NCBI GenBank assembly: GCA_038215405.1
Contig: JBBQQX010000002.1
Span: 22,094 to 86,093, forward strand
From: Burkholderiales bacterium
Lineage (GTDB): Bacteria > Pseudomonadota > Gammaproteobacteria > Burkholderiales > Burkholderiaceae_C
DNA: 64,000 nt
Reading direction: 5' to 3'
Positions within the stretch are counted from its first letter, which is position 1. The number at the start of each line of letters is the position of its first letter. Shown one piece after another: positions 9,959 to 62,169 of this stretch. A program made the translations under genes and the position numbers. The notes beneath the pieces are model-generated. The model did no database searches. It was not told the DNA's origin and saw only the letters and a program-made list of their open reading frames with translations.

Positions 9959-9997
9959 AAGGTCATGGTGAGCTTAGGGTTTTTCATGGCCAAGCCC

Positions 9998-37429: not shown

Positions 37430-39007
37430 ATGACACCCGTTAGCGCCACTGCCATCGATGACGCCCGCTACCTCGCCCTCAAGGCCAAGGACGCGCGCTT
37501 TGACGGCTGTTTTTTCACCGGCGTCACTTCCACCGGTATTTATTGCCGCCCGGTCTGCCGCGTGCGCACGCCCAAGCGCGAGAACTGCCGGTTCTTTAGC
37601 CACGCTGCGCAAGCCGAACGCGCGGGCTTTCGGCCCTGCCTGCGCTGCCGCCCGGAACTCGCACCGCGCGCGCCCGCCCCCGCCCTGGCGCCCGAGGCGC
37701 GCGCGTGGTCGATGCAGGACGCCTGCAGCATTCTGGCCGCACAGGCGGCGCGCCTGCTCGATACCCCCGAGGCTTGGGCGCAAGGCCCGCCCAGCGTCGC
37801 TCAACTCGCGCTGCGACTGGGCGTGAGCGAGCGCCACCTGCGCCGCATTTTTGCGGCGGCCCTGGGTGTCTCGCCGCTGCAATACCTGCAAACGCGGCGC
37901 CTGCTGTCGGCCAAGCAGCTGCTGACCGACACGGCGCTGCCCGTCACCGAAGTCGCGCACCTCAGTGGTTTCGCCAGCGTGCGACGCTTCAATGCCGCGT
38001 TTGCCGAGCATTACGCCCTCAACCCCAGCCAGCTGCGCCGCGGCGGCGCGCGCGGCGCTCAGGGCGCTCAGGGCGGCGCCCTGGCGGGCCTTCAGGTCCG
38101 ACTGGCGTATCGCCCGCCCTACGACGCCCGCGCCATGCTGACGTTCTTTGCCACGCGGCAAGTCACCGGCATCGAAGACGTCACGCTGAGCGCGGACCAC
38201 TTGAGCCTGCGCAAGACCGTCGCCGTCTCAGCCTTTGACAAGCGCTACACCGGCTGGATCGAGGCGCGCTTCGATGACGCGCAGCACCGTGTCGATCTGC
38301 GCCTGAGCGATTCCCTGCTGGGTGTGCTGCCCGGGGTGATGGCGCGCGTGCGCGCCCTGTTCGACCTGGACGCCGATCCCGGCGCCATCAACAGCGTGCT
38401 GCAGGCCCGCTTCCCCCTGGGCAACGGTTTGCGTGTGCCGGGCGCGCTCGACGGCTTCGAGCTCGCCGTGCGCACCGTCCTGGGCCAGCAGATCACGGTG
38501 GCCGCGGCGCGCACGCTTGCAACCCGGCTGGTGGCGCGCTGGGGTGAGCCGGTCGATACGCCGTTTGCCGGTCTGAACCGGCTCTTTCCGACGCCCGCCG
38601 CACTGGCTGGCGCCAGAGCCGATTCGCTCGGCGCGTTGGGCATCGTCAAACAGCGCCAGGGCGCGATCCAGGCGATCGCCAGCGCCGTGTTGACGCAGCG
38701 CCTGCAACTGCACGCGGGTGCCGACGTGGCGGCCACCGTGGCTGCGCTGAAGGCGCTGCCCGGGGTGGGCGACTGGACCGCCCAGTACATCGCGATGCGG
38801 GCGCTGCGCTGGCCCGATGCCTTTCCGGCCGGCGATGTTGCGCTGCACCGGGCGCTGGGCGTGCAAGATGCAAAAAACCCGGCGCTAGAGGCGCAGAGCG
38901 CGTCGCGGGCCTGGCAGCCGTGGCGCAGCTACGCCGTGATCCGGGCTTGGTCGACCCTGGCGCCGACCGTGGGCCGGCCCCCAGTCAGCTCAATTGCTAT
39001 TGAATAA
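37430..39007 (+). CDS. Ada N-terminal (Zn methylphosphotriester sensor)-AraC HTH-AlkA DNA glycosylase fusion protein
   Basis: 525 aa. Cys cluster CRPVCRVRTP...RPCLRCRP, AraC-type HTH, then HhH-GPD glycosylase region (GVGDWTAQYIAMRAL...PAGD). Confidence 0.85.
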   Translation: MTPVSATAIDDARYLALKAKDARFDGCFFTGVTSTGIYCRPVCRVRTPKRENCRFFSHAAQAERAGFRPCLRCRPELAPRAPAPALAPEARAWSMQDACSILAAQAARLLDTPEAWAQGPPSVAQLALRLGVSERHLRRIFAAALGVSPLQYLQTRRLLSAKQLLTDTALPVTEVAHLSGFASVRRFNAAFAEHYALNPSQLRRGGARGAQGAQGGALAGLQVRLAYRPPYDARAMLTFFATRQVTGIEDVTLSADHLSLRKTVAVSAFDKRYTGWIEARFDDAQHRVDLRLSDSLLGVLPGVMARVRALFDLDADPGAINSVLQARFPLGNGLRVPGALDGFELAVRTVLGQQITVAAARTLATRLVARWGEPVDTPFAGLNRLFPTPAALAGARADSLGALGIVKQRQGAIQAIASAVLTQRLQLHAGADVAATVAALKALPGVGDWTAQYIAMRALRWPDAFPAGDVALHRALGVQDAKNPALEAQSASRAWQPWRSYAVIRAWSTLAPTVGRPPVSSIAIE

Positions 39008-39052
39008 ATAGCTGATGACGCCTATTCAACGAGGGCCGCAAGGCGAAATGAC
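38993..39052 (+). repeat. Element A copy forming the ada-alkA / ogt junction
   Basis: TTGCTATTGAATAAATAGCTGATGACGCCTATTCAACGAGGGCCGCAAGGCGAAATGAC. The alkA-fusion stop TAA (39005-07) lies in the AT-rich loop. The ogt ATG follows the tail immediately. Confidence 0.7.
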
Positions 39053-39595
39053 ATGAAATATTCAGCAGACACCGTGCAGACGAGCTACGCCAGCCCGCTG
39101 GGGCGCATCATCCTGGCCGCCAGCGACGGCAAATTGCTGGGCGCCTGGTTTGAGGGCCAAAGCCACCAGCCCGACACCGCACGCTGGCCCGAGGCACACG
39201 ATGGCGCCATCTTCGACCTGGCCAAGGCGCAATTGAAGGACTATTTTGCGGGCCGGCGCGAGTCCTTCGATCTGCCCCTGGACTTGAGCGGCGGCACTGA
39301 TTTTCAGCAGTCGGTCTGGCGCGCCCTACTGAATATCCCGCGTGGCAGCACCTGCAGCTATGGCGATATCAGTGTGGCCATCGGCAAACCCGCTGACCTT
39401 TACGCAAGGGCCGTGGGCGGCGCGATCGGACGCAACCCCTTGAGTATCATCGTGCCTTGTCACCGCGTGCTCGGCACCAAAGGCGCTCTCACCGGCTACG
39501 CCGGCGGGATCGAGCGTAAACGCGCGCTGCTGATGCTCGAAGGCGCGGCGTTCCAGCCCTCGACCCAGGCCGGCCCAACCCAAGGAACACGTTGA
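39053..39595 (+). CDS. ogt: Methylated-DNA--protein-cysteine methyltransferase
   Basis: 180 aa. Active-site IIVPCHRVLG. Confidence 0.9.
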   Translation: MKYSADTVQTSYASPLGRIILAASDGKLLGAWFEGQSHQPDTARWPEAHDGAIFDLAKAQLKDYFAGRRESFDLPLDLSGGTDFQQSVWRALLNIPRGSTCSYGDISVAIGKPADLYARAVGGAIGRNPLSIIVPCHRVLGTKGALTGYAGGIERKRALLMLEGAAFQPSTQAGPTQGTR

Positions 39596-40669: not shown

Positions 40670-40810
40670 CCCGCGACGATACTCCGGCGCACCTTGGCTG
40701 TAAAGACGCGTTAGCGCCTGATTTCGGCCCCTTCATTGTGTTTAGGGCCATCCACCCGCACCCGGCGCAAGGCGGCCTGGCGGCGCGTCAAAGGCGTGCA
40801 CTCAAGGCGC

Positions 40811-40824
40811 TTGCGTTTTCTCAA
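40811..40824. promoter_or_regulatory. Crp/Fnr/FixK-type palindrome upstream of hsp20-lon
   Basis: TTGCG-TTTT-CTCAA, 80-110 nt upstream of the hsp20 leader and start. Confidence 0.45.
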
Positions 40825-40927
40825 GCAGCCAATCGGACAGCGCTCTTACGCTTGATTGAGCTTGATCGATCGGGCGCCAGCCCAAGTACAAGGAGACCAG
40901 GCAATGAAGACGGGACAGGGCTAATCC

Positions 40928-41332
40928 ATGCGGCATCATGATCCCAGGGCTTGGATGCTGACGCAAGCGATTGACCTGCTGCACAGTGCCGACCGCTTGC
41001 AGCGCCAGTTGTTCCATATTGGCCACCTTGACGACGCGCCTTGCTGGCAACCCCCGGTCGACATGGTTGCGAACGAACATGAACTCGGCCTGCTGATCGC
41101 ACTGCCCGGGGTAGCCCCGGAGCACCTGTCGGTGAGTCTGGAGTCGCAGTGCATTGTGGTGCGCGGTAAACGCATGTTTGGCGCTAACCTGGGCACAGGC
41201 GCCATTGTCCGGCTGGAAATTCCTTATGGTCGTTTTGAGCGCCGCATTGGCTTGCCTGCCGCGACCTATCGCCTCGCTGACATGCAGTTCGAGCACGGCT
41301 GCCTGCGGCTTCATCTGGAGCAACACCCATGA
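40928..41332 (+). CDS. Hsp20/alpha-crystallin-family small heat-shock protein
   Basis: 134 aa. WQPPVDMVANEHELGLLIALPGVAPEHLSVSLESQCIVVRGKR is an ACD-like core. 4-nt overlap with lon. Confidence 0.7.
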   Translation: MRHHDPRAWMLTQAIDLLHSADRLQRQLFHIGHLDDAPCWQPPVDMVANEHELGLLIALPGVAPEHLSVSLESQCIVVRGKRMFGANLGTGAIVRLEIPYGRFERRIGLPAATYRLADMQFEHGCLRLHLEQHP

Positions 41333-43722
41333 GTCAAGTCATCCACTTACCCGACAAAAGCGACCGTCCGGCTGAGGCAGACGCATTGCCGGCGTTGCCC
41401 AGCGACGCCCTGGTCATCGTGCCGGTGCGCAACATGGTGTTGTTTCCTGGTATGGTGGTGCCGATCTCGATCGGACGCGAGAGCTCGATTGCCGCCGCCC
41501 AGTACGCGGTCAAGACCGATCAGGCCGTGGGCATCCTGATGCAGAAAAGCCCGGAGGTGGAAACACCCGGTCCCGACGATTTATCGGGTGTTGGCACCAT
41601 CGCCGCCATCCTGCGCTACGTCACCACGCCGGACGGCACCCATCACATCGTGTGCCAGGGGCAGCAACGCTTTCGCGTCACCGGCTACGTGACTGGTTTC
41701 CCTTTCACCGTGGCGCGGATCGAACGCATTGACGAGATGGTCGTGCTGGATGACCGCGAAATCGAGGCGCGCTTCATGCGGCTCAAGGAGCGCGCCGTTG
41801 AGGTGCTGCAAATGATGCCGCAGGTGCCCGCCGAGATGGTGCACGCGGTACAAAGCATCGACACCCCGGCGATGCTGGCCGACCTGGTGGCGGGCTACGT
41901 GGACATCAAGGCGCCGGAGAAGCAGGAGATTCTGGAAGAAGTTGATCTGCGCCGCCGCCTGGATCGGGTGCTGGAGATGCTGGTTCACCGCATGGATGTG
42001 CTGAAACTCTCGCGTGACATTGACAGACGTACCAAGACCAGTCTGGGCCAACGTGAGCGCGAGTTTTTGTTGCGTGAGCAGTTGAAGTCAATCCAGAAAG
42101 AACTTGGCGAAGAAGGCGCCGGCAACGCCGCTGAAATCGACGACCTGCGCAAATTGATAGCGGACGCCAACATGCCCGAAGAGGTCGCCAAGCAGGCGAC
42201 CAAGGAGCTCAAGCGGCTCGAGCGCATGGCGGACGGCTCGTCCGAATACTCGATGGTGCGCACCTACCTCGATTGGCTGGTCGAACTGCCCTGGAAAGCG
42301 CCGGAGCCCGACACGATTGACGTGGCGCAGGCGCGCCAGGTGTTAGACGCCGATCATTTTGATCTGGAAAAAGTTAAAAAGCGCATTGTCGAATTTTTGG
42401 CCGTGCGCAAGCTCAAGCCCGGCGGCCACGGCCCGATCCTGTGCCTGGTCGGGCCGCCCGGCGTCGGCAAGACCTCGCTCGGGCAATCGATCGCGCGCGC
42501 GATGGGGCGCAAATTTGTGCGGGTGTCGCTCGGCGGCGTGCATGACGAGGCCGAAATCCGCGGCCACCGGCGCACCTACATCGGCGCCCTTCCCGGCAAC
42601 ATCATCCAGGCAATAAAGAAGGCTGGCACCCGCGGCTGCGTCATGATGCTGGACGAGATTGACAAGCTCGGCGGCGGCATCCAGGGCGACCCGTCGGCGG
42701 CGCTGCTGGAGGTCCTGGACCCCGAGCAAAACAACACCTTTCGCGACAATTACCTGGCCGTGCCTTATGACCTGTCCCAGGTGCTATTCATCACCACCGC
42801 CAATGTGCTCGACCCGATTCCCGGTCCGCTGCGTGACCGCATGGAGGTCTTGCACCTGTCGGGCTACACGCAAGAAGAAAAGCACGAAATCGCCCGGCGC
42901 TACCTGGTGGCGCGCCAGTTGGAAGACACCGGTCTCAAGCCCGAGCAGTTGGAGATCACCGACGCGGCACTCGCAAGCATCATCCGCGATTACACGCGCG
43001 AAGCCGGCGTGCGCAACCTGGAACGCCAGATTGGCGCAGTCTGCCGGCGCGTGGCCGTGCGCATCGCTGGAGGGGAAATAGACAGCGCACGTGTTGACGC
43101 GCCCGATCTGGATGAGGTGTTGGGCCCGGCCAAGTTCGAGAATGAAGTCGCGTTGCGCGCCGGCCTGCCGGGTGTGGCGACCGGGCTGGCCTGGACACCG
43201 GTGGGCGGGGACATTTTATTCATCGAAGCCAGCCGCATGGCGGGCACCGGGCGCCTGATCCTGACTGGGCAACTGGGCGACGTGATGAAGGAGTCGGCCC
43301 AGGCCGCGCTGACGCTGGTGAAATCACGCTCGGCCAGCTTCGGGCTTGACGCGGCCATGATGGAAAAGACCGATGTGCACATCCATGTGCCCGCGGGTGC
43401 CATCCCGAAGGACGGCCCCAGCGCGGGGGTGGCCATGTTCATTGCCCTGGCGTCCCTGTTCATGGACCGGCCGGTGCGCAGCGATGTGGCCATGACCGGC
43501 GAGATTAGCCTTCGCGGCCTGGTGTTGCCGGTCGGCGGCATCAAAGAGAAGATGTTGGCAGCGCTGGGCGCCGGCATCAAGAAGGTCTTGTTGCCCTCGC
43601 GCAATCGCAAGGACCTGGAGGAAGTGCCACTGCAGGCCCGGGAGCAACTCGAATTTGTTTATCTTGACGACATCGGGCAGGCGGTCAAGGCGGCCATTGA
43701 GGTCGCCGATCCGTCAATTTGA
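41329..43722 (+). CDS. lon: ATP-dependent Lon protease
   Basis: 797 aa. LON N-domain, Walker A GPPGVGKTS, catalytic PKDGPSAGVAM. Confidence 0.95.
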   Translation: MSQVIHLPDKSDRPAEADALPALPSDALVIVPVRNMVLFPGMVVPISIGRESSIAAAQYAVKTDQAVGILMQKSPEVETPGPDDLSGVGTIAAILRYVTTPDGTHHIVCQGQQRFRVTGYVTGFPFTVARIERIDEMVVLDDREIEARFMRLKERAVEVLQMMPQVPAEMVHAVQSIDTPAMLADLVAGYVDIKAPEKQEILEEVDLRRRLDRVLEMLVHRMDVLKLSRDIDRRTKTSLGQREREFLLREQLKSIQKELGEEGAGNAAEIDDLRKLIADANMPEEVAKQATKELKRLERMADGSSEYSMVRTYLDWLVELPWKAPEPDTIDVAQARQVLDADHFDLEKVKKRIVEFLAVRKLKPGGHGPILCLVGPPGVGKTSLGQSIARAMGRKFVRVSLGGVHDEAEIRGHRRTYIGALPGNIIQAIKKAGTRGCVMMLDEIDKLGGGIQGDPSAALLEVLDPEQNNTFRDNYLAVPYDLSQVLFITTANVLDPIPGPLRDRMEVLHLSGYTQEEKHEIARRYLVARQLEDTGLKPEQLEITDAALASIIRDYTREAGVRNLERQIGAVCRRVAVRIAGGEIDSARVDAPDLDEVLGPAKFENEVALRAGLPGVATGLAWTPVGGDILFIEASRMAGTGRLILTGQLGDVMKESAQAALTLVKSRSASFGLDAAMMEKTDVHIHVPAGAIPKDGPSAGVAMFIALASLFMDRPVRSDVAMTGEISLRGLVLPVGGIKEKMLAALGAGIKKVLLPSRNRKDLEEVPLQAREQLEFVYLDDIGQAVKAAIEVADPSI

Positions 43723-43732
43723 GAATGCGCAA
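43719..43732. promoter_or_regulatory. Crp/Fnr/FixK-type palindrome upstream of the 64-aa ORF
   Basis: TTGAG-AATG-CGCAA. Overlaps the lon stop codon. Centre lies 64 nt upstream of the ATG at 43790. Confidence 0.45.
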
Positions 43733-43789
43733 GCGCCATCAGCTTGAGCGCGCTAGAGTGGACCCAAGTCACACATCAGGAGAGTCGCA

Positions 43790-43984
43790 ATGGAAAACTC
43801 ACCCTTGGGCGCCAAGTCAGACGCCGCGCTCCAGGATATCGGGGCGGCGTTGTATGAGTTGCGCGATGCGCTGATCGAGTTGTCGCTGTCGATGCGCGAC
43901 CTGCAGTTTGAAACCGACGTCGAACGGCGCCAAGCCACCGAAGCCACGGTACAGCAATTGCTGCAAAAGATCTCTTCGAACTAA
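43790..43984 (+). CDS. Small hypothetical protein (64 aa, predicted helical/coiled)
   Basis: Strong SD AGGAGA 7 nt upstream. No family recognised. Confidence 0.45.
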   Translation: MENSPLGAKSDAALQDIGAALYELRDALIELSLSMRDLQFETDVERRQATEATVQQLLQKISSN

Positions 43985-44003
43985 AGGCCCGATTGGGACC
44001 AGC

Positions 44004-44246
44004 TCAGTGGTAATGCCTCTTGCCCGCCATTTGGCCGGGCTTGAGACTGATCGCCAGACTGCGAATACCAGGCACGCGGCGCGCAGTGCGCTCGACCTGA
44101 AAACGCGTTTGCTGCGTATCAACGCTGCCACTCAAAGTCACGACGCCAGCATCCACATCCACCTCGATATCAGAGGCATTGACAGCGGGAATCGCATCAA
44201 GCAACTCCATCACGTCGGCTTTCAGTTCGGCATCGGTTCTCATCAT
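44004..44246 (-). CDS. BON-domain protein
   Basis: MMRTDAELKADVMELLDAIPAVNASDIEVDVDAGVVTLSGSVDTQQTRFQVERTARRVPGIRSL is a BON (OsmY-like) domain. ATG at 44246 is preferred over the GTG at 44285. Confidence 0.7.
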   Translation of the reverse strand: MMRTDAELKADVMELLDAIPAVNASDIEVDVDAGVVTLSGSVDTQQTRFQVERTARRVPGIRSLAISLKPGQMAGKRHYH

Positions 44247-44335
44247 GAGCTCCAGCAGTAGGCATCTTGGTTGATCGGGCGCCACGCTCTAGGGTGGTGC
44301 GCGCTTAACTTTAGACAAGGTGACGCGGTATTGAA

Positions 44336-44349
44336 TTGAGATTTCTCAA
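44336..44349. promoter_or_regulatory. Crp/Fnr/FixK-type palindrome in the divergent BON / GroEL-remnant promoter region
   Basis: Perfect palindrome TTGAG-ATTT-CTCAA. Confidence 0.45.
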
Positions 44350-44488
44350 AGCTGACGCCGCGCAGGCAGTGACGCCGACGGCGCCTGTGTACCCGGCGCC
44401 AACTGCTGCTGGTGCTTGCGATTTGTCAAGCGCCTTCTAGGCTCTGGCTTCTAGGATGGCTCGCAGGTCTTGCTAACGGGGGCTTACT

Positions 44489-45073
44489 TTGACGGCCAAG
44501 CAACTTCTTTTTCATGACGACGCCCGCGACAAGATCCGCCGCGGCGTCGAGATCGCCATCGACACCGTGGTGGCACAACTCAAACCAATGGCCAAGCCCT
44601 GTGTCAACTCGCAGGAGATTGCGCATGTGGCGTCGCTCTCGGCCAACAACGATCGCTCCATTAGCGAACTGCTCGCCAGCGCAATCGACAAGCTCGGGCG
44701 CGAGGCCGCGGTGCTTGAAGGCGCGGCGATTCTGTTGTGCGAGGGCCGCCTGAGCTCGCTCAAGGACTTGCTGCCCCTGTTAGACGAGATCGTGAAGGAA
44801 GGTAGACCCCTGTTGGTGATTGCCGAGGACCTGGACAGCGATTCGCTCGCGGCGCTGGTAATCAACACGATTCGCGGCACCCTGAAAACCCGCGCTGTCG
44901 AGGAGGGCATCGTGCCTGGCGGCGGTGTGGCACTGTTGCGCGCGCGGCGCGCCTTGCTCACGTTGACTGGCAGCACGCTCGATGAGACATCGGGCATACG
45001 CCTGATGGCGCTGGGCCCAGTGGCGGCGCAGCGCCCATGTTTTAACAACCACGCCACACGAGAACCATCATGA
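44489..45073 (+). CDS. GroEL-derived 194-aa ORF with three large in-frame internal deletions (remnant chaperonin; possibly a pseudogene)
   Basis: Segments align to E. coli GroEL as I remember it. MTAKQLLFHDDARDKIRRGVE matches about residues 1-21. IAIDTVVAQLKPMAKPCVNSQEIAHVASLSANNDRSISELLASAIDKLGREAAV matches about 118-175. LEGAAILLCEGRLSSLKDLLPLLDEIVKEGRPLLVIAEDLDSDSLAALVINTIRGTLKT matches about 214-273. RAVEEGIVPGGGVALLRA matches about 404-421. The nucleotide-binding DGTTT segment is absent. TTG start. Confidence 0.7.
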   Translation: MTAKQLLFHDDARDKIRRGVEIAIDTVVAQLKPMAKPCVNSQEIAHVASLSANNDRSISELLASAIDKLGREAAVLEGAAILLCEGRLSSLKDLLPLLDEIVKEGRPLLVIAEDLDSDSLAALVINTIRGTLKTRAVEEGIVPGGGVALLRARRALLTLTGSTLDETSGIRLMALGPVAAQRPCFNNHATREPS

Positions 45074-45528
45074 AAAAAACCTGGATTTTGATCGCCAATG
45101 CCACCCGCGCACGGGTCTTTGAGCGCCGCGCCACTGATCGCGCGCTGGTAGAGCTGGCTGATTTTGTCTATCCCGTCAAGAATCTGGTTGACGAGGCGGC
45201 GGGCGGCGACCTGACCGGTGCAGCGGGCAAGGGCCACGGCCGCACCGGCCATGCGGGCACGCAGTTTGAGCCCACCACCGAGGTCAAAGACAAAGCGCGG
45301 CTGAACTTTGCCCGCCAGTTGGCCGACTACCTCAACCAGGGCGTGAGCGAGCAGCGATGCCAGGTCTTGATGCTGATCGCCAGCAGCCCGATGCTGGGAG
45401 ACCTCAAGCCCTTGTTGAGCAGCGCTGCTGCGGGCATGCTGCAGCAAGCCGTTGCGAGCGACCTGACGCGCTACCAGCATGCCGACTTGCAGGAGCGCGT
45501 CGAGCGGGCGCTGCAACTCCCGGTCTGA
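45070..45528 (+). CDS. Host-attachment-protein-family protein
   Basis: 152 aa. MKKTWILIANATRARVFER... is the typical N-terminus of this family. ATGA overlap with the preceding ORF. Confidence 0.75.
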   Translation: MKKTWILIANATRARVFERRATDRALVELADFVYPVKNLVDEAAGGDLTGAAGKGHGRTGHAGTQFEPTTEVKDKARLNFARQLADYLNQGVSEQRCQVLMLIASSPMLGDLKPLLSSAAAGMLQQAVASDLTRYQHADLQERVERALQLPV

Positions 45529-45530
45529 TA

Positions 45531-45590
45531 GATGCTATATAAAACGTAGCTGCTAACGCTTTATACACGAGGGCTACGGGCCGGTTTGTT
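45531..45590 (+). repeat. Element A copy, intergenic (host-attachment gene / nrdJ 3' ends)
   Basis: GATGCTATATAAAACGTAGCTGCTAACGCTTTATACACGAGGGCTACGGGCCGGTTTG. Confidence 0.75.
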
Positions 45591-45596
45591 ATAAAT

Positions 45597-45614
45597 TCTC
45601 TGGCAACACCAGAG
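45597..45614 (-). terminator. Hairpin downstream of the class II RNR gene
   Basis: CTCTGG / CCAGAG perfect 6-bp stem with a 5-nt loop. An A/T-rich run follows on the minus strand. Confidence 0.35.
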
Positions 45615-45649
45615 AGGCCCGGTTGCAGCCACCCAATCAACCCATCAAG

Positions 45650-47413
45650 TCAGAGCGGGCCCAGGTGTCCCTCGCGCTCAATGGCACAGCCTTTGAGCCC
45701 CAGTTCCCATGCCTGCTGCAACACCAGGCCCACGTCCTGCTCGCTGGCACTCTTGGGAAGGTAAACGGTTGTGGCAATAGCGCCGTCCACACAGGACTGC
45801 ACCGCGGCCATCAGGTTCAACTGCTCTTCAGCGATCACGTCGGCAGCCTGCACAAAATGCTTTGGCCACGGCGCATCGGGGCCATGCAGTGCTTGGTAAT
45901 GACGGCAAGCGGCGTCCTCGACATCAAAGAATACCGCCTGCCCGTCGACGCCGCGTACCCGGCGCATGGCCCTGAAGGCACGCATCGGTTCAATGCCATT
46001 CGACACATTGTTGGCCAGCAAACTGATGGACTCTGTCGGCGCCACCGCCAGCAGGTGGCTGTTGCGAATGCCATGCTGCGCGATGGCGCCTTGCAGCGTT
46101 CGGTCAAGATCCAGCACAAAGGGGCTGGCGCCGTATTTGAGCTTGTCACACGCAGGGAAGGCGCCCTTTTCCTGCGCCAGCTCGACCGAGGTGCGGTAGG
46201 CGACGTCGCGGATGGCAACCATGATTTCGCGCGTCAGGTCGATGCTCGCCGCGCAGCCGTATCGCAGGCCCAGCATCGCCAGCATGTCGGCCAGCCCGGT
46301 CACACCCAAGCCAAGGCGCCGGGTGGCGAGGGGGCTTTTTTGCTGCGCCTTGAGCGGGAGCAGGGAGATGTCATGCACATCATCCAGAAAACGCGTGGCC
46401 ACCGCCGCCACAGCGCGCAGTCCCGCAAAGTCGACACTCGGGTGTTCACCAAAAGGCTGGTTGACGAAGCGACTCAGGTTGATCGAGCCCAGGTTGCATG
46501 CGCCCCAGGGTGGCAGTGGCACTGCCCCGTCGGGGCTGGTCACGGCCAGATGTTCGTCATACCAGAGGTTGTTGGCCCGGTTGATGCGGTCGATGAACAG
46601 CACGCCCGGATCAAAGCTGGTGTGCTGGGCCTGCAGCAGTTTTTGCCACAAGGCGCGCGCCGGCACGCGCCGGCGTACCAGGCACAACTGCGGCAGGCCG
46701 CCCGGCCACCAGACGCGCTCGCACACCTCGGCGCCGACCGGAATCGGGTGCTCGCCCAGAGGAAATACCAACGGCCACGGGCCGTCGTCTTGCAGCACCT
46801 GCATGAAGTCGTCGCTCAGCAACACCGACAGCCTGAAGTGCGACAAAGCACCCGCCTCAAGCTTGGCGTCGATGAAGGCTTCAATATCCGGGTGGTCACA
46901 GCGCAGCGTCGCCAGCATGGCGCTGCGGCGCCGGTTGCCTGACGCCAACACCGCATTGGCCGCCTGCCAGACCTCCATGAACGAAACTGGCCCGCTTGCG
47001 ACTTCGCCGCTGGCCCGTGCGGGCTCAAGCGCGGGACGCAGCGTGGAAAAGTCGATGCCGAGGGCGCCCCCGGCTTGCACACACAACATGGACTCGCGCA
47101 GTGCGTTGAAGATGCCCTGCACCGAATCCTCGATGGGCCCCAAGGCCAGGCAATTGAACAGGGTGGCCCGGCGCGACGTGCCCGCGCCTGCCAAAGTGCG
47201 CCCGCCCGGCAGAAAGCGCCAGTCACTGAGCATCGCGTAAAAACGCTCACGCCAGTCGTTCTGGTGGTGCGGCTCGGCGCCCGCCACCGCCAGCGCCACA
47301 CGCTCCCAGGTCGCCTCAACGGACGGCTCTGGCACGCTGCCCGGCTCGGCCCAAAGGTACTGCGTACGCCAGACATGCGCTGAAGCTTCGCTTTCAAAAG
47401 GGGGCCTTTGCAT
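45650..47413 (-). CDS. nrdJ: Adenosylcobalamin-dependent (class II) ribonucleotide reductase
   Basis: 587 aa. RFLPGGRTLAGAG, ATLFNCLAL (active-site Cys), GGALGIDFSTLRP. General class II RNR architecture. Confidence 0.8.
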   Translation of the reverse strand: MQRPPFESEASAHVWRTQYLWAEPGSVPEPSVEATWERVALAVAGAEPHHQNDWRERFYAMLSDWRFLPGGRTLAGAGTSRRATLFNCLALGPIEDSVQGIFNALRESMLCVQAGGALGIDFSTLRPALEPARASGEVASGPVSFMEVWQAANAVLASGNRRRSAMLATLRCDHPDIEAFIDAKLEAGALSHFRLSVLLSDDFMQVLQDDGPWPLVFPLGEHPIPVGAEVCERVWWPGGLPQLCLVRRRVPARALWQKLLQAQHTSFDPGVLFIDRINRANNLWYDEHLAVTSPDGAVPLPPWGACNLGSINLSRFVNQPFGEHPSVDFAGLRAVAAVATRFLDDVHDISLLPLKAQQKSPLATRRLGLGVTGLADMLAMLGLRYGCAASIDLTREIMVAIRDVAYRTSVELAQEKGAFPACDKLKYGASPFVLDLDRTLQGAIAQHGIRNSHLLAVAPTESISLLANNVSNGIEPMRAFRAMRRVRGVDGQAVFFDVEDAACRHYQALHGPDAPWPKHFVQAADVIAEEQLNLMAAVQSCVDGAIATTVYLPKSASEQDVGLVLQQAWELGLKGCAIEREGHLGPL

Positions 47414-47471
47414 GACGGCTCATCCTGACACTCAGATGGATTCAGAGTAGCCAAGCGCCAGCCACGGGCGC

Positions 47472-47485
47472 TTGATGATTCGCAA
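47472..47485. promoter_or_regulatory. Crp/Fnr/FixK-type palindrome upstream of nrdJ
   Basis: TTGAT-GATT-CGCAA. Centre lies 65 nt upstream of the nrdJ ATG (47413). Confidence 0.45.
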
Positions 47486-47617: not shown

Positions 47618-49486
47618 TTAGACCAATGCGGGCGGCGGCTGCGCGCCCATTTCAAGCCGGTCGCGCCCCGCTTCCTTGGCCCGGTACAGGGCCGCGTCTG
47701 CCAAGCCCAGCAGTTCGGCAAAGGAATGCTCACCCGCTAAACAGCCGGCGCCGATACTCACTGTGTAAACAATGGTTTTCCCATTCACATGCACCGCATT
47801 CGCGCGCACGATTTCCACAATGCGCTGTGCCAGTGCCCGCCCGCCTTCCAACGGGGTATTGGGAAGCAGAACGGCAAATTCCTCGCCGCCAATGCGCCCG
47901 ATCAGATCGGCCCCGCGCAACACCGAGGTCACGGTCTGCACGCATTTTTGCAACACAACATCGCCCGCGGCATGGCCGTGCTGGTCATTGATGGTCTTGA
48001 AATGATCCAGGTCCAGCATCAGCACCATCAGCGGCAAGGCATAGCGAATCGATCGCGCCACCTCCTGCTCGGCCAGATTGAAGAAGTTGCGCCGGCTCAG
48101 GGCGCCGGTCAGGGTGTCAATATTGGCCAGCGTCAAGCTGGTGAGTTCGGCGGTCTTGAGTTGGGTCACGTCTTCGTGGCTGATCACCAGCCGCTGCACG
48201 CGGTCGTGCACCGGCGTGACTTTCATGCTGAACCAGCGCTTGTCCAGCGGGGTGAAAAATGGCTGGTCCAGCTGGAAAAAAGGCAAGTCGCCGGCCAGGA
48301 CTGCCGTGATGCCAGCCTCGGCGGCCTGAACCGTTAGCGCATCATGCTCGGTCAGGCAAGCGAGGATTCTCAGGTAGCTGGCGCTCTGGCAGCAGGGCTG
48401 CGCTGAAAACCCGCTGTCAATCAAATATTGCCGCCACGCCACATTGGTCTGCAGCACTGTGCTGGTGTGATCGAGCACCGCGACCTGGGCCACCAGGGAA
48501 TCAAACACCGCCTGCTGGAACCGACTCACAACCAGCAGGGCGTCTTCAGTCACTTTTTGTTTGCTGATGTCGACGTGTGTGCCGACCATACGCAAGGCCT
48601 TGCCGTCGCTGCTGCGGCTGACGACGGCGCCGCGGGAAAGCACCCACTTCCAGCTGCCGTCCTTGCATCGGCCCCGGAATTCAATGAAGGTGCTGGCGGC
48701 CTTGCCGCTCAGGCACGCTTGATGCTCGCTGATCACGCGCGTCCTATCGTCGGGATGGATGCGTGACACCCAGTCATCGAGGTGGCGCCCGTATTCATTT
48801 TCAGAAAAACCATAAAGTTGCTCGAAGCGTTTGGAAAAGACCTGTTCACCGGTCACCACGTTCCAGTCCCAGACACCGTCACCAGCCGCCTCCAACGCCA
48901 GCTTCCAGCGTTCCTCGCTGGCGCGCAACTGCTCCTGTGCCAGCCTGCGCTCGGTGATATCCAGCAGAATGACCTGCCAGCCCAGGCTCGGCCCCAGCGC
49001 GGCCACCTTCATTTGCACATGCGAGACCAGCGGCCCCTTGTTGGCAAACGTCAACTCGCTGCTCTGCACGTCGCCGGTGCTGGTGGCTTGTTCCAGCAAG
49101 GCATTGAACTGGGGGCGATCGGCGTCAGCCACAAAAAGCCCCAGGCGGCTTCCCAGCAGGCGGACACGTTCGCGACCGAGCAAGCTGGCTCCCGCGAGAT
49201 TCAACTTGGCGATCGCCCCGGCGCCGTCGAGCGAAAAAATGCCCACAGGCGCAAAGTCGTTGAACTGGTTGCTCTGGTTCAGCGATGATTCCAGTTGCAG
49301 GCGTGCCGTGTTCAGGTGCTCGTTCTGCAACTCCAGTTCAATTTGATGGATTTCGAGTTCTTCAAACAAATGCTGGGCCTCGGCCACGCTCAAGGCCTGC
49401 GCCGAACTGGCGGAGCGCCCCAGAAAACGCTTGCGCGCGAGTTCGCGCAACTCATCGAGGCTGAGCGGGTTTCTACGAAAGGCCAT
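47618..49486 (-). CDS. PAS/PAC sensor diguanylate cyclase (GGDEF)
   Basis: 622 aa. N-terminal coiled coil, several PAS modules, GGDEF domain with RIGGEEFAVLL. Confidence 0.9.
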   Translation of the reverse strand: MAFRRNPLSLDELRELARKRFLGRSASSAQALSVAEAQHLFEELEIHQIELELQNEHLNTARLQLESSLNQSNQFNDFAPVGIFSLDGAGAIAKLNLAGASLLGRERVRLLGSRLGLFVADADRPQFNALLEQATSTGDVQSSELTFANKGPLVSHVQMKVAALGPSLGWQVILLDITERRLAQEQLRASEERWKLALEAAGDGVWDWNVVTGEQVFSKRFEQLYGFSENEYGRHLDDWVSRIHPDDRTRVISEHQACLSGKAASTFIEFRGRCKDGSWKWVLSRGAVVSRSSDGKALRMVGTHVDISKQKVTEDALLVVSRFQQAVFDSLVAQVAVLDHTSTVLQTNVAWRQYLIDSGFSAQPCCQSASYLRILACLTEHDALTVQAAEAGITAVLAGDLPFFQLDQPFFTPLDKRWFSMKVTPVHDRVQRLVISHEDVTQLKTAELTSLTLANIDTLTGALSRRNFFNLAEQEVARSIRYALPLMVLMLDLDHFKTINDQHGHAAGDVVLQKCVQTVTSVLRGADLIGRIGGEEFAVLLPNTPLEGGRALAQRIVEIVRANAVHVNGKTIVYTVSIGAGCLAGEHSFAELLGLADAALYRAKEAGRDRLEMGAQPPPALV

Positions 49487-52103
49487 GGCCGTCCCCTGCG
49501 GGTTTAGAGCTCTCAGACAGCCCCGCCAGCCGGGCTTGCGCAGCGCGCAACTCGGCTTCGATCTTCTTTCTCCTGGAAATGTCCGAAAAGGTGATCACCA
49601 GACCGTCAATACGGTTCTCCTGCGTGCGGTAGGGCATGGTGCGCACGCTGAACCAGCGCTCATCCGATGTGGGCACGTCCCTTTCACGAAACACCAGCGT
49701 GCGCAGCACTTCGCGCGCATCAGCCATCAGCTCGGGATACGCCAGATCAGAGACGATGTCGGTAATGGGCCGGCCCGTGTCGCCAGGAATGAGCTTGATA
49801 ATGCGGGTGGTCTGGGGTGTGAAGCGTCGCACATGGAGCGTTTCATCAAGAAACAGCGTGGCGATCTCGGTGCTATCAAGCAGGTTCTTCATGTCGTTGC
49901 TGGCGCGCGCCAGGTCGGTCACCTTGGCCTGCAATTCATGGTTAAGGGTCTGCAGCTCTTCGTTCATCGACTGCATTTCTTCTTTGGAGGTGAGCAGCTC
50001 CTCGTTGGTCGATTGGAGCTCTTCATTCATCGATTGCAGTTCTTCGTTGCTCGATTTGAGCTCTTCCTGCGCGGTCTGCATCTCTTCACGCACGGACCTG
50101 GCTTCCTCGCGCGATTGTTGCAGGTCCTGCATCAGCGCTTCCATTCGATTGCCATCAGCAGCCGCACCCGAAGCGCGCGCGCTGCGTCGATGTGGCCTGG
50201 CCACATCATAAAAAACCACCAGCGCCAGGCCGCGCAGGGCCGAAGGCTCCAGCAGCGGCTGCACGACGATGTCAACATGGGGTGCGGCGCTCTCGCTGTT
50301 GACTTTCACATCTTTCAGCGTAACTGGCGCCTTGTCGCGCAGCGCGCGGTGGAAGGCTTCCTTCAAAACCTGGTTAAGGCCGCTGCGCGCCATTAAAAAC
50401 AAATTCAGGCTGGGCTTGCCGGCAGCGGGCTCCAGGTATTTGCCGGTTCTGCCGCTGAAATAGAGCACCTCAGCCTGTTCGGTGACCAGCACCGCCGCCG
50501 GTGCGTAGCGCTGCAGCAGCAAGGTTTCCACCATTTTCATTAGGCTTGGCACCGCCGCCAGGGCTTCGCTCACCTGCGTGGCGGCGCCCGCCCGCAACTT
50601 GCCATGGGCCTGCACAAACGCGGCCGGAAAGCCCGCCGGCAGCATCCGATCGAGCGCGTCCAAACGCCGGTACAACCGTGTTTTGCCCGCCAAGGGCGCA
50701 AACAACTCGGTGGCCGCGCCAACCGACTCGGCACTACCGAGCAGCAAGAAGCCACCGGGCGCCAGACTGAAATGAAACAGCTCCATCAGCTTCACCTGCA
50801 ACTCGGCTTCGAGGTAAATCAGCAGATTGCGGCAGCTCAAAAAGTCGAGCTTGGTAAAAGGCGGGTCGGCAATCAGGTTGTGCTCGGCAAAGATCACCAT
50901 CTCGCGAATTTCATTGCTGACACGGTGGCCGGCTGCGTCATCCACAAAGAAGCGCTCCAGGCGTTGCTCGGACACATCGGCTGCAATGTGGCGCGGGTAG
51001 ACGCCGGCGCGGGCCACGGCAATGGCATCGCGGTCCAGGTCCGAGGCAAAAATTTGCAGCGTAAAGTGCGCTTGCGGCTTGGCCAGCGCCAGAGCCTCCC
51101 GAAAGACTATCGCCAGCGAATACGCCTCTTCACCAGTCGAGCAGCCGGGCACCCAGGCGCGCAGAACGCCACCGTCCGGACATTTGGCGAGCAGCGCCGG
51201 CACGACTTCGTTCCTGATCTGGTCCCAAACAGCGGGATCGCGAAAGAAGTTGGTCACGCCAATCAGCAGCTCGTTGAACAGCAGTTCGGACTCATACGAG
51301 TTTTCGCGCAGGTAGCGCAGGTAATCGGCCACATGGGCCAGTTGATGCAGGCCCATGCGCCTTTCAACCCGGCGCGAAATGGTGGATTTTTTGTAAAAGG
51401 AAAAGTCGTGCCCGGTCTGGTTGCGCAGCAGCACGATCACCTTGTCCAGAAAGCCGGCGTCTTGCTGCGCTGCTTTCAGTCGGGCATCAACGTCGATGGC
51501 GAGCTGACTGCGCCCGACGTAGGCCATGATCTTGACTGGTAATTCGTCAGCCAGGGCCACCACATCGGCCACACCGGCCTCCAGCGCACTGCGCGGCATG
51601 CTGTCAAACTGGGCGGTCGCGGGGGTTTGCACAAAACAGGCGCCAGCAGCCTGGCGGATCGCGCGCAAGCCCTGCGTGCCGTCCGAGCCCATGCCCGAAA
51701 GAATGACGCCGATGCTGTTTTCCTGCTGGTCATCGGCCAGCGACTTGAGAAAGAAATCAATCGGCAGGCGCAGACCACGCAGTTCGGGTAGCACCAGCAA
51801 GTGCAGCACGCCTTTGAGCAAAGACAGGTCGCGCCCCGGCGGAATCACGTAGACATGGTTGGACTCGACCAGCGTCTGGTCTCGCACCTCGGCCACCGGC
51901 ATCGGCGTATGGCGCTGCAACAATTCCACCAACATGCCTTCACGCTTGGGGTCCAGATGCTGCACGATCACATAGGCCAAGCCGCTGTTGACCGGCACAT
52001 GGGCAAAAAACTGCTCCAGCGCGACCAGCCCGCCGGCGGACGCGCCAATGCCGACGATGGAAAAAGGTCGCTGTGTGGGCGGTGACTTCTCTTCTTTCTT
52101 CAA
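49473..52103 (-). CDS. CheB methylesterase-CheR methyltransferase-PAS fusion protein
   Basis: 876 aa. CheB catalytic domain (IVGIGASAGG...), CheR SAM-dependent domain (RAWVPGCSTGEEAYS), NEELQS-type coiled coil, C-terminal PAS. The 3' end overlaps the GGDEF gene start by 14 nt. Confidence 0.9.
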   Translation of the reverse strand: MKKEEKSPPTQRPFSIVGIGASAGGLVALEQFFAHVPVNSGLAYVIVQHLDPKREGMLVELLQRHTPMPVAEVRDQTLVESNHVYVIPPGRDLSLLKGVLHLLVLPELRGLRLPIDFFLKSLADDQQENSIGVILSGMGSDGTQGLRAIRQAAGACFVQTPATAQFDSMPRSALEAGVADVVALADELPVKIMAYVGRSQLAIDVDARLKAAQQDAGFLDKVIVLLRNQTGHDFSFYKKSTISRRVERRMGLHQLAHVADYLRYLRENSYESELLFNELLIGVTNFFRDPAVWDQIRNEVVPALLAKCPDGGVLRAWVPGCSTGEEAYSLAIVFREALALAKPQAHFTLQIFASDLDRDAIAVARAGVYPRHIAADVSEQRLERFFVDDAAGHRVSNEIREMVIFAEHNLIADPPFTKLDFLSCRNLLIYLEAELQVKLMELFHFSLAPGGFLLLGSAESVGAATELFAPLAGKTRLYRRLDALDRMLPAGFPAAFVQAHGKLRAGAATQVSEALAAVPSLMKMVETLLLQRYAPAAVLVTEQAEVLYFSGRTGKYLEPAAGKPSLNLFLMARSGLNQVLKEAFHRALRDKAPVTLKDVKVNSESAAPHVDIVVQPLLEPSALRGLALVVFYDVARPHRRSARASGAAADGNRMEALMQDLQQSREEARSVREEMQTAQEELKSSNEELQSMNEELQSTNEELLTSKEEMQSMNEELQTLNHELQAKVTDLARASNDMKNLLDSTEIATLFLDETLHVRRFTPQTTRIIKLIPGDTGRPITDIVSDLAYPELMADAREVLRTLVFRERDVPTSDERWFSVRTMPYRTQENRIDGLVITFSDISRRKKIEAELRAAQARLAGLSESSKPAGDGHGLS

Positions 52104-52382
52104 TCATCCTCCGGTAAGCTTCACTGTTTTTTGCCGCATCTTACAGTTCCGATATTTACATAGCTTTACAACAACCGCAAGGCAACTGGGGTGATTCGCC
52201 ATGGTCCTTGATCGCGCCCTTCATGCCAATGGCGTCATGGCCCAAGTCTGATGAACGAGCCGCAACAAGAGGAAGTCTGGCTCGGCAGTTCAATTTATTT
52301 GGACGCCTTCGGGACTGCGGGTTTGTTAAATGTCAAACCGTTGAGCGTCCTTCGGGATGGCATGATGTCTGTTGCTGGCAGA

Positions 52383-52440
52383 CGCTACTTTATAGATAGC
52401 TGTATAAGCATTAGGGACGTGGGCTAGAGCCTGATTTTAT
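52383..52440 (+). repeat. Element A copy, intergenic (upstream of the CheB/CheR gene)
   Basis: CGCTACTTTATAGATAGCTGTATAAGCATTAGGGACGTGGGCTAGAGCCTGATTTTATC. Confidence 0.75.
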
Positions 52441-52456
52441 CTAAAAACAAAGCGAT

Positions 52457-52960
52457 TTACTCACTCACCAGCTCACGCAGCCAGTCTGGCAAGGCCGTGG
52501 CCTTTTGCTTTGGGAAGTCAACCCAGATGGTGGTGGCGCCACCGGCGGCGTAGATCACACCGGGTTGGTCAGCGCGCTCCATCGTGGCCCAGCTCTCAAA
52601 AGTGGTGCGCCCGGGGTCGCTGACATACATTTTCATCAGCACGTCACCGGGGTATTCAAGCTGCTTGTAGAAGTTGCAGAACGCGTTGACGATCACGGGG
52701 CCTTGGGTATTGGGGTCAGACGCCAATTTCGCAGCGACGCCTGGCGTCGCCCCCGAAGGGCCAGCCATTTGGCTGGGCGAATTTGGACTCTGACCCCAAA
52801 AACCAAGGCCGGCGGCGCGCATCCAGTCGATGCGGCAGGTCTCCAGGTAACGGAAATAAGTGGTGTTGTTGACGTGGTTCATGGCGTCCATGTCACCCCA
52901 GCGAATCGGGATGATCATCTGGTAGACCAGTTTTTTCTGCTGCGGAAGCTCGAATTTCAT
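52457..52960 (-). CDS. Acyl-CoA thioesterase, 4HBT/YbgC family, carrying an internal low-complexity insertion
   Basis: MKFELPQQKKLVYQMIIPIRWGDMDAMNHVNNTTYFRYLE hot-dog-fold N-terminus. ATG at 52960. The longer ORF 52457..53395 is an artefact. Confidence 0.8.
   Translation of the reverse strand: MKFELPQQKKLVYQMIIPIRWGDMDAMNHVNNTTYFRYLETCRIDWMRAAGLGFWGQSPNSPSQMAGPSGATPGVAAKLASDPNTQGPVIVNAFCNFYKQLEYPGDVLMKMYVSDPGRTTFESWATMERADQPGVIYAAGGATTIWVDFPKQKATALPDWLRELVSE
52712..52797. repeat. 86-nt nested palindromic element lying in frame inside the thioesterase gene
   Basis: GGGGTCAGACGCCAATTTCGC (52712-32) pairs with GCGAATTTGGACTCTGACCCC (52777-97), 18 of 21 complementary. Inner palindrome GCGACGCC-T-GGCGTCGC and hairpin CCAGCC-ATTT-GGCTGG. 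Confidence 0.75.
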
Positions 52961-53550
52961 GCTTTGATCCTTGGTAAAACGGTCGCCCCACGGTGCCCCT
53001 TGCTGCTTGGCCAGCCCCAGGGCGCCTGCGCTGCGGCAAACACCTCCATCACCAGCAGCGGCGCCCCGCCGCGCGCGAAGACCGAGCGACGCGCTGGCAG
53101 GGTGCGGCTGGCCAAGGCCGCGCCGGTAGCGCCCTGCCACGCGCGCGCGACGTGACGATGCAAGGGGCTGGCGCTTTGCAGGCTGGCAAATTGCAGCGGT
53201 GAGCGTGTGATGGCGTGCTGGCGGAACAGCACATCGGCCAGCGGCCGCGTGCCCAGGCCCCGGATGGCGCGCCACGGGCCTTGGGAGTGTGGGTGCGCGG
53301 TGACGCTGCGGGCAAAGACCACGGCGAGCCCGTCCACGCGCAGCAACACCTCGCGTACATAGCCCGAGCGGCCTCGGTTCAAACCCAAGGCGCACGCCTC
53401 ATCGGGGTGCAGCGGCTGCAGGCCTTGATTCAACACCTGCACACTGAAGCGCTGCCCCGCACCTGCCAACCGCGCACTGAGCGAGCCAGCGGCGCCGACC
53501 CAGCGTTTGCGGTTGCCGCGCTGCACATTGATATTGCTCCATGCCTTCAT
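52957..53550 (-). CDS. ubiC: Chorismate pyruvate-lyase (UbiC family)
   Basis: 197 aa from the ATG at 53550. GSLSARLAGAGQRFSVQVL...YVREVLLRVDGLAVVFARSV...GLGTRPLADVLF matches the UbiC pattern. 4-nt overlaps on both sides. Confidence 0.7.
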   Translation of the reverse strand: MKAWSNINVQRGNRKRWVGAAGSLSARLAGAGQRFSVQVLNQGLQPLHPDEACALGLNRGRSGYVREVLLRVDGLAVVFARSVTAHPHSQGPWRAIRGLGTRPLADVLFRQHAITRSPLQFASLQSASPLHRHVARAWQGATGAALASRTLPARRSVFARGGAPLLVMEVFAAAQAPWGWPSSKGHRGATVLPRIKA

Positions 53551-57322: not shown

Positions 57323-57334
57323 TTGTAAAATCCG

Positions 57335-57590
57335 CCGGGTCAGGAGAGAGCCAGCCCCGTGAGGTGGCCGCCGAAGGCGCAGAGTTGCTGATCGCAGCAG
57401 TTTGAACGCTCAGGCAAAAGGACTGACAAACACTTCAAAGGTCGCAAGACCTTGGCGTGATTCCCCACTGGAGAGAGGTCACCGCTGGCGCTAGGGCGCC
57501 AGGGCGATCCACCGAAGGAGCAACCCGAAGCCAACACCGCAGGCGTGTCTGGAGGCGGCGAATCTCTCAGGTAAAGCGGACAGCGGCGGC
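57335..57590 (+). promoter_or_regulatory. Tandem glycine riboswitch (two aptamers) in the gcvT leader
   Basis: Aptamer 1: GGAGAGAG...CCGAAGGCGCA...CTCAGGCAAAAGGAC. Aptamer 2: CTGGAGAGAG...CACCGAAGGAGCAA...CTCAGGTAAAGCGGAC. Both match the conserved glycine-aptamer core. Confidence 0.85.
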
Positions 57591-57662
57591 AGCCCATGGC
57601 TTTCGACATTGGTCGAGGCCGTGGTATTTGACTTGCCCCTTTTCCTTTGCAGGAGTTCGCTG

Positions 57663-59286: not shown

Positions 59287-62169
<2,883 letters not shown>

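Follow-up and report, generated by a model that had tools for sequence, protein, structure and literature searches.

Five predicted Crp/Fnr-type operators over a stress and survival gene cluster in a Rhodoferax-like bacterium

The 64,000-nucleotide stretch of burkholderial DNA considered here (contig JBBQQX010000002.1, positions 22,094 to 86,093, assembly GCA_038215405.1), referred to below as the window, carries a compact cluster of genes for the small heat-shock protein (sHsp) Hsp20, the protease Lon, a 64-residue protein (orf64), a BON-domain protein, a fragment of GroEL, a host-attachment protein (Host_attach/baeRF12) and the ribonucleotide reductase NrdJ. Five palindromic boxes lie at the promoters of this cluster, and they are predicted from their sequence, with good confidence, to be functional activator sites of the Crp/Fnr type (FNR/Anr/FixK). 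By analogy with known systems, the genes that they precede make up a probable low-oxygen survival regulon in a Rhodoferax-like bacterium.

A preliminary description of this DNA had pointed out four 14-mers, and all four are found where it placed them: TTGCGTTTTCTCAA at 40811, TTGAGAATGCGCAA at 43719, TTGAGATTTCTCAA at 44336 and TTGATGATTCGCAA at 47472. Box 1 (40811-40824, plus strand) would serve the hsp20-lon operon, and box 2 (43719-43732, plus strand), which overlaps the lon stop codon, would serve orf64. Box 3 (44336-44349) reads TTGAGAAATCTCAA on the minus strand, toward the BON gene, and box 4 (47472-47485) reads TTGCGAATCATCAA on the minus strand, toward nrdJ. When the core was relaxed to TTG-N8-CAA, a fifth intergenic box was found, TTGCGATTTGTCAA at 44416-44429 (box 5, plus strand), which would serve the operon of the GroEL fragment and the host-attachment gene. 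It had escaped the preliminary description because the degenerate pattern TTGMK-N4-MKCAA does not admit its right half, GTCAA. The divergent region between the BON gene and the GroEL fragment consequently carries two boxes, 44336 and 44416, 80 bp apart and one per promoter, and the claim that every intergenic region has exactly one box is therefore wrong. Box 44336 had been described as lying between the two divergent units; it faces the BON gene only, while the operon on the other side is faced by box 44416.

All five sites fit TTG(A/C)(G/T)-N4-N(T/G)CAA. Each is a 14-bp dyad with the outer triplets TTG and CAA, half-sites of the TTGA or TTGC type and half-site centres 10 bp apart, which is the dyad of FNR and FixK and not that of CRP. 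The relaxed FixK-type consensus to which the first four had been compared, TTGA/C-N6-T/GCAA, agrees with the published form (PMC6710368). Two of the boxes had also been described as equidistant from their start codons, and their centres indeed lie 64.5 nt (orf64) and 65.5 nt (nrdJ) away, a -64/-65 position that is kept in the orthologues.

Each box is followed, in the direction of the adjacent gene, by a -10-like hexamer of the form TAnnnT, with spacers of 22, 21, 22, 22 and 22 nt. For hsp20-lon this is TACGCT (40847-40852, plus strand, 22 nt past box 1), which predicts a transcription start near 40859. The corresponding hexamers are TAGAGT for orf64 (43754-43759, plus strand, 21 nt past box 2), TAAAGT for the BON gene (44308-44313, minus strand, 22 nt past box 3), TAGGAT for the GroEL fragment and host-attachment gene (44452-44457, plus strand, 22 nt past box 5) and TACTCT for nrdJ (47444-47449, minus strand, 22 nt past box 4). 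For these four units, starts are predicted near 43766, 44301 (minus strand), 44464 and 47437 (minus strand). With a 22-nt spacer, 29.5 bp separate the box centre from the first base of the -10 hexamer downstream, so that the centre comes to lie at about -41.5 from the transcription start. FNR-type activators classically occupy this place at class II promoters, and the spacing of the boxes appears to match that geometry, at about -41.5 (40.5 in one case) as judged from the -10 hexamers. No -35 hexamer and no sigma-70 consensus promoter was called at any of the five sites, which fits promoters that lack a -35 element and depend on an activator.

The excess of these sites and their enrichment at promoters were assessed on the 64-kb window together with 1.1 Mb of loci from relatives. 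The composite pattern of a box, 21-22 nt and TAnnnT occurs five times in the window, with all five matches inside 6.7 kb, compared with 0.30 ± 0.54 expected; the maximum among 300 shuffles was three, and none reached five. The degenerate pattern TTGMK-N4-MKCAA by itself is matched eight times in the window, where 1.86 ± 1.40 matches are expected, and eight was reached in 0 of 100 dinucleotide-preserving shuffles. The earlier estimate of less than one chance occurrence was thus too low, while the excess over chance is real. Besides the first four boxes, these eight comprise matches at 2367, 38201, 44109 and 50827, which were rejected since they all lie within coding open reading frames (ORFs), have no TAnnnT hexamer within 45 nt on either side and score lower with a position weight matrix (PWM). 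This matrix, built from 38 unique boxes outside the window, ranks the five boxes of the cluster as the top five sites of the window, at 18.7-23.9 bits (20.8 bits for box 1 and 22.6 bits for box 5), and all five are intergenic or at a gene edge. A sixth intergenic candidate, TTGTTAAATGTCAA at 52323-52336 (17.2 bits), upstream of a gene for a CheB-CheR-PAS protein, was not counted. It has no -10 hexamer at 20-23 nt and no counterpart in the six relatives that had enough upstream sequence, including the one labelled L002, and it is probably non-functional.

The relatives come from a scan of a genome collection with the host-attachment protein, which gave 69 loci at one genome per species, nearly all of them from Rhodoferax, Polaromonas and other Comamonadaceae. 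The closest host-attachment proteins are those of L001 (86% identity) and L002 (82%), and most or all of the synteny is common to L002, L007, L013, L017, L042, L041 and L060. Upstream regions were picked by protein homology alone, and a box was scored as TTG-N8-CAA with a -10 hexamer at 21-22 nt. By this measure, box and -10 are present in 13/13 hsp20 regions (the window counted), where TAC(G/C)CT is kept at 21-22 nt, in 10/10 BON regions, and in 10/13 orf64 regions (the window counted), always at -64/-65. At nrdJ, 12 of 21 upstream regions have an exact box and -10, again at -64/-65; in a MAFFT alignment of 18 nrdJ promoters, all 18 are boxed if one mismatch is allowed, and in six loci that apparently have no box the site is present with one mismatch, as (A/G)TGCGATTTATCAA. 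Box 5 and its spacing recur upstream of groEL in 12 loci, the gene being full length where this was checked (L002).

The invariant columns of the nrdJ alignment (n = 18) are essentially TGCG..T..CAA, TA..CT and the start codon, plus one further column. In the BON alignment (MAFFT, n = 10), they are TTG.GA..TCTCAA, TA.AGT and the Shine-Dalgarno sequence GGAG, again plus one further column. Mean column identity in these two promoter alignments is 52-53% (53% for nrdJ). The proteins of the compared species are only 41-89% identical and the DNA flanking the boxes has diverged; at such protein identities, the non-coding conservation of the boxes is therefore selective.

Over the whole 1.11 Mb of relatives' loci plus the window, the composite pattern has 101 matches, compared with about 5 expected at the shuffle rate, and about 70 of the 101 fall before a recurring set of gene families. 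By family, these are hsp20 (15), groEL (13), nrdJ (13), BON (8), orf64 (8, with the window's own in addition), the host-attachment gene directly (5), a family of 161-residue coiled-coil, lipoprotein-like proteins (4), universal stress protein (USP) genes (2) and lon (2). Singletons precede, among others, genes for a nitroreductase, a DUF883 protein, a CNNM/CorC protein and a Zn protease of the FtsH type. In relatives, the same type of promoter is thus also found before USP, nitroreductase, FtsH and DUF883 genes. The consensus of 70 unique sites is TTG(C>A)G-A(T/A)TT-N-TCAA, with an information content close to zero in both flanks and spacer; the distance from box to -10 is fixed within 1 bp at about 70 sites and across many gene families.

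A related arrangement is found on a Variovorax boronicumulans megaplasmid (L072, NZ_CP138497.1, 518412-536834), in an island whose annotation lists three Hsp20 proteins, two USPs, a BON protein and a host attachment protein. Its 18 kb hold 11 TTG-N8-CAA boxes, five of them with a -10 at 21-22 nt, so boxes and gene set occur together beyond the clade as well. The box centres in this island are GC-rich (e.g., TTGATC-N2-GCGCAA), a different kind of operator within what appears to be the same logic of regulation, and the AT-rich centre GATTT looks specific to the clade, to judge by the sites compared. The association is not universal, since a Paraburkholderia megaplasmid locus with a distant Host_attach homologue has no composite site.

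The preliminary description had noted that no gene for a Crp/Fnr-family regulator lies in the window, and this holds. With FNR of E. coli, Anr of P. aeruginosa and CRP as queries, tblastn found nothing in the window at E ≤ 0.01, a hidden Markov model made from FNR, Anr, CRP and the relatives' regulators gave only noise (E > 2) in its six frames, and Pfam scans of plausible ORFs of 200-270 residues in the window returned only unrelated families. In eight relatives, however, a Crp/Fnr-family protein is encoded beside the cluster, with a length of 252-254 residues where the full ORF was recovered. Its gene is just upstream of the CheB-CheR gene in six of them (L007, L013, L017, L036, L039 and L060); in the other two, L010 and L014, its neighbour is the host-attachment gene. 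In the corresponding region, the window has a stretch of lower GC content (52104-53546, 55%) with thioesterase-like and chorismate-lyase-like ORFs.

The relatives' protein has cNMP_binding and HTH_Crp_2 domains and the recognition helix TLETVSR. The E-xx-SR motif in this helix is the one that reads TTGA-type half-sites in FNR. The protein is nearest to FNR (E = 5e-24), followed by FixK2 (1e-14), and far from Dnr (1e-4). It begins with an extension of 55 residues that contains no cysteine at all, and hence has no N-terminal Cys-x2-Cys-x5-Cys cluster; its alignment to FNR starts at FNR residue 48-51, the position of C122 is not aligned to a cysteine, and the NCBIfam Fnr score of 115 bits is below the cut-off of 228. 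Its association with the cluster makes it a plausible cognate regulator. However, at that position the gene is missing from the window and from L002, both of which have intact boxes; either, then, these genomes encode it elsewhere, or the boxes are bound by another paralogue. Autoregulation was considered as well; there is no convincing box upstream of the regulator gene in five relatives.

From all this we infer binding by a Crp/Fnr-family protein and activation rather than repression, together with the transcription starts, the signal and the subtype of the regulator (Fnr, FixK or Dnr). In the proposed mechanism, a dimeric activator of this family would bind the five operators, for which the clade consensus is TTG(C/A)G-A(T/A)TT-N-TCAA. 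The bound protein would overlap the -35 position and recruit RNA polymerase by class II activation, so that all five units, hsp20-lon, orf64, BON, GroEL fragment/host-attachment and nrdJ, would be switched on together. Oxygen limitation would be the most likely signal if the Burkholderia cenocepacia lxa locus and the P. aeruginosa Anr/Dnr regulon are taken as models. What the regulon would deliver is a set of functions for survival, made up of protein quality control (sHsp, Lon and, originally, a GroEL paralogue without GroES), the BON protein, a protein resembling release factors and a ribonucleotide reductase that needs no oxygen.

The interpretation as a Crp/Fnr/FixK-type regulon, already advanced in the preliminary description, is supported by the type of dyad, the fixed spacing to the -10, the conservation and the ranking by an independent PWM, and further by the E-xx-SR regulator next to the cluster in relatives and a gene content that parallels that of the lxa locus. 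Several points weigh against it. No regulator gene is present in the 64-kb window, and none was found in the 20 kb fetched from L002, the closest fully syntenic relative. The protein encoded beside the cluster in other relatives is without the FNR cysteine cluster, which makes direct oxygen sensing by that protein through a [4Fe-4S] cluster unlikely. Unlike in lxa, there is no USP gene among the window ORFs scanned. The relatives, moreover, are not independent samples, and the conservation counts thus overstate the number of independent events.

One reading, possible though doubtful, is that the regulon is run by a dedicated FNR-clade paralogue, the one found beside the cluster in the eight relatives, which would have lost the Fe-S cysteine cluster and acquired the 55-residue N-terminal extension, and not by the global oxygen-sensing Fnr. 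Such a paralogue may sense something other than oxygen via [4Fe-4S], and the clade operator, with its TTGCG left half-site and GATTT centre, may insulate the stress set from the respiratory Fnr regulon. If so, the sHsp-Lon pair, the GroES-less GroEL paralogue, baeRF12, the BON protein and orf64 would constitute a distinct proteostasis unit for dormancy, in which a GroEL paralogue is cotranscribed with the release-factor-like baeRF12 protein. It is rather unlikely that the same sites, with the same activation, answer to a Dnr/NnrR-type protein or another non-oxygen sensor of nitric oxide, redox state or some other ligand; the cue would then be nitrosative or denitrifying conditions, or something else again, in place of oxygen itself. 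The missing N-terminal cysteine cluster would suit such a sensor too, TTGCG half-sites are common in the NnrR/FixK2 targets of Bradyrhizobium diazoefficiens, and induction of P. aeruginosa nrdJ needs dnr as well as anr. However, by the E-values given above, the relatives' regulator is far closer to FNR and FixK2 than to Dnr, none of the 101 composite matches was seen before nir, nor or nos (most of the singleton families not being annotated), and the gene content matches the low-oxygen lxa set.

The dyads overlap the place where a -35 element would be, and some FNR sites are repressive, which might suggest the operators of a repressor, of the Crp/Fnr type or another family, that blocks the -35 region. 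With no -35-like hexamer, however, these promoters would be weak without an activator, and a spacing to the -10 fixed within 1 bp at about 70 sites is a hallmark of class II activation; both features make a repressor very unlikely, and the homologous systems are activated. The names Hsp20, Lon and GroEL by themselves would suggest ordinary heat-shock genes under sigma-32 or HrcA/CIRCE, with the dyads incidental, an explanation that is scarcely tenable given that nrdJ, BON and orf64 have the same type of promoter. No sigma-32-like or CIRCE-like element was found in any of 30 upstream regions of hsp20, groEL and lon, nor in the window between 40400 and 47700, when searching for CTTGAAA-N12-17-CCCCATnT with one mismatch per element and for TTAGCACTC-N9-GAGTGCTAA. 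A weak CTTGATC-N13-CCCAAGTA, seen by eye in the hsp20 leader, falls below these search criteria and has no evident counterpart in the leaders of L001 and L002. The last alternative is that a degenerate palindrome has matched by chance in intergenic DNA, which is richer in AT. In its favour, the core TTG-N8-CAA by itself is common (37 matches in the window versus about 22 expected), four matches to the degenerate pattern are within coding DNA, and the intergenic look-alike at 52323 is not conserved. The shuffles of the composite pattern (five against 0.30 expected, 0/300), the positional conservation across species and the independent PWM ranking nonetheless allow this explanation to be practically dismissed.

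The genes of the cluster are those named at the outset, Hsp20, Lon, BON, the GroEL fragment, Host_attach/baeRF12 and NrdJ all being borne out by Pfam and NCBIfam, and on two independent metagenome contigs with an identical host-attachment protein the gene calls agree with the map of the window. hsp20 (40928-41332, plus strand; Pfam HSP20) and lon (41329-43722, plus strand; Pfam Lon_C, LON_substr_bdg and AAA; NCBIfam lon equivalog, 937 bits) overlap through ATGA. An antisense ORF at 40802-41326 was dismissed as an alternative to hsp20 on the Pfam evidence. In the hsp20 leader (40891-40930), an insertion common to the window, L001 and L002 puts a short upstream ORF right after the Shine-Dalgarno sequence AAGGAGA. 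In the window, it encodes MKTGQG* (40905-40925), and the hsp20 ATG follows 4 nt past its stop codon without a Shine-Dalgarno sequence of its own; in L001 and L002, the peptides begin MKTGQRTINA and MKSGQRTINA, and in more distant relatives the Shine-Dalgarno sequence is directly before hsp20. The upstream ORF may serve translational coupling or encode a leader peptide. An Rfam search of the leaders for known RNA elements, such as thermometers and B12 riboswitches, found none.

Downstream of lon, orf64 (43790-43984, plus strand) encodes a conserved 64-residue protein for which Pfam and NCBIfam scans gave no family. It has orthologues at 41-70% identity in 12 loci and is called as a gene on independent contigs. 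The convergent BON-domain gene (44004-44243, minus strand; Pfam BON, 52.8 bits) encodes 79 residues, as does the gene call on Logan contigs. A GC-rich hairpin, GGCCCGATTGGGACC (43986-44000), occupies the 19-nt gap between the stop codons of these two genes and may act as a bidirectional terminator.

The GroEL fragment (44489-45073, plus strand, 194 residues) scores 134 bits with NCBIfam GroEL, below the cut-off and in three stretches, and overlaps through ATGA with the Host_attach/baeRF12 gene (45070-45528, plus strand; Pfam Host_attach, 103 bits). What is left of it, in a single open frame, corresponds to residues 1-39, 116-282 and 406-463 of the L002 GroEL. It is the decayed form of a GroES-less groEL paralogue, of which L002 has an intact copy (8339-9976) and most relatives one that appears to be full length. 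In the closest relative, L001 (3850-4530), groEL has internal deletions that differ from those in the window, so the two lineages seem to have undergone this decay independently. Both retain the promoter and the coupling to the host-attachment gene that follows. The last gene of the cluster, nrdJ (45650-47413, minus strand), encodes an adenosylcobalamin-dependent, class II ribonucleotide reductase according to Pfam and to the NCBIfam NrdJ_Z equivalog (451.6 bits, above cut-off).

Next to nrdJ, at 47618-52103, are genes for the CheB-CheR-PAS fusion protein (876 residues) and a PAS-GGDEF diguanylate cyclase (622 residues), which overlap by 14 nt. This pair is kept next to nrdJ in the syntenic relatives and has no box here; a single composite match stands before the CheB-CheR gene in L017, and in six relatives the gene of the Fnr-like regulator immediately precedes the pair. 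An adaptive-response pair is located just ahead of the cluster, at 37430-39595, namely an Ada-AlkA fusion (Ada Zn-binding, AraC helix-turn-helix, AlkA_N and HhH-GPD domains) followed by an O6-methylguanine methyltransferase; the coding match at 38201 is within the first of these genes. Farther downstream, a tandem glycine riboswitch (57331-57593, two aptamers of 48.7 and 47.6 bits), the only known RNA element found in the window, lies upstream of gcvT (57609-58808), which is followed by two ORFs (58897-59271 and 59287-62169) that by position are presumably gcvH and gcvP. This arrangement is ordinary and well known.

The regulon is solid and well conserved, of a type already known from Burkholderia and Pseudomonas, and it reveals no new mechanism. 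What it offers is a clean and testable map of promoters, with a -10 element and a start site predicted for each of five units, for what is probably a hypoxia or dormancy regulon in Rhodoferax/Polaromonas, bacteria that are widespread in freshwater, sediment and the subsurface. It would extend the lxa/Anr-type programme of survival without oxygen from Burkholderia and Pseudomonas to the Comamonadaceae, and it would give a regulatory context to proteins of unknown role, namely orf64, Host_attach/baeRF12 and the GroES-less GroEL paralogue.

The lxa locus of B. cenocepacia J2315 is the closest precedent of the present cluster. It comprises about 50 genes with an Anr/Fnr-like motif at 17 intergenic points, among them an sHsp gene induced 240-fold by low oxygen, genes for two "phospholipid-binding" proteins induced 221- and 89-fold, and genes for a class II ribonucleotide reductase, an ATP-dependent Zn protease, six USPs, a nitroreductase and Anr-like regulators (Sass et al. 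2013, PMC3721108). Both systems are from Burkholderiales and have an Anr/Fnr-like inverted repeat with a TGA-N6-TCA core at many intergenic points of one cluster, five within 6.7 kb here and 17 in about 50 genes there, and the window has the sHsp, BON, NrdJ and Lon genes of an lxa-type set. The "phospholipid-binding" proteins of lxa are here taken to be of the BON type. The two differ in that lxa contains its own Anr-like regulators, whereas the window has none and eight relatives have one beside the cluster; in that low-oxygen induction was shown by experiment for lxa and is predicted for the cluster in the window; and in extent, with five units here and about 50 genes there, and six USPs in lxa but none among the sampled window ORFs. 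Lon takes the place of the Zn protease, the box centre is AT-rich (GATTT), and the window adds the decayed GroEL paralogue, the Host_attach/baeRF12 gene and orf64.

A second parallel is the nrdJ gene of P. aeruginosa, where mutation of the Anr/Dnr box abolishes anaerobic induction (Crespo et al. 2016, PMC4860495). There, too, a box of the form TTGA(T/C)-N4-(A/G)TCAA is located upstream of a class II ribonucleotide reductase gene, but its centre is 84 bp from the start codon, whereas the boxes here have a distance of 64-65 bp and mostly TTGCG as the half-site, and the regulators there have been identified as Anr, an iron-sulphur protein, and Dnr. The FixK2 boxes of B. diazoefficiens, given as TTGA/C-N6-T/GCAA (Bonnet et al. 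2013, as cited in PMC6710368), conform to the same relaxed consensus, including TTGC half-sites, and FixK2 resembles the relatives' neighbouring regulator in having no Fe-S cluster. It belongs, however, to the alphaproteobacterial FixLJ-FixK2 cascade, whose targets belong to respiration and denitrification; FixLJ was not found here, and the relatives' regulator is closer to FNR than to FixK2. There is also a functional analogy with the DosR dormancy regulon of Mycobacterium tuberculosis, which, in a parallel drawn for lxa (PMC3721108), also combines a hypoxia-induced alpha-crystallin, a class II ribonucleotide reductase, USPs and nitroreductases, under the control of an unrelated regulator, a LuxR-type response regulator, and through an unrelated DNA motif.

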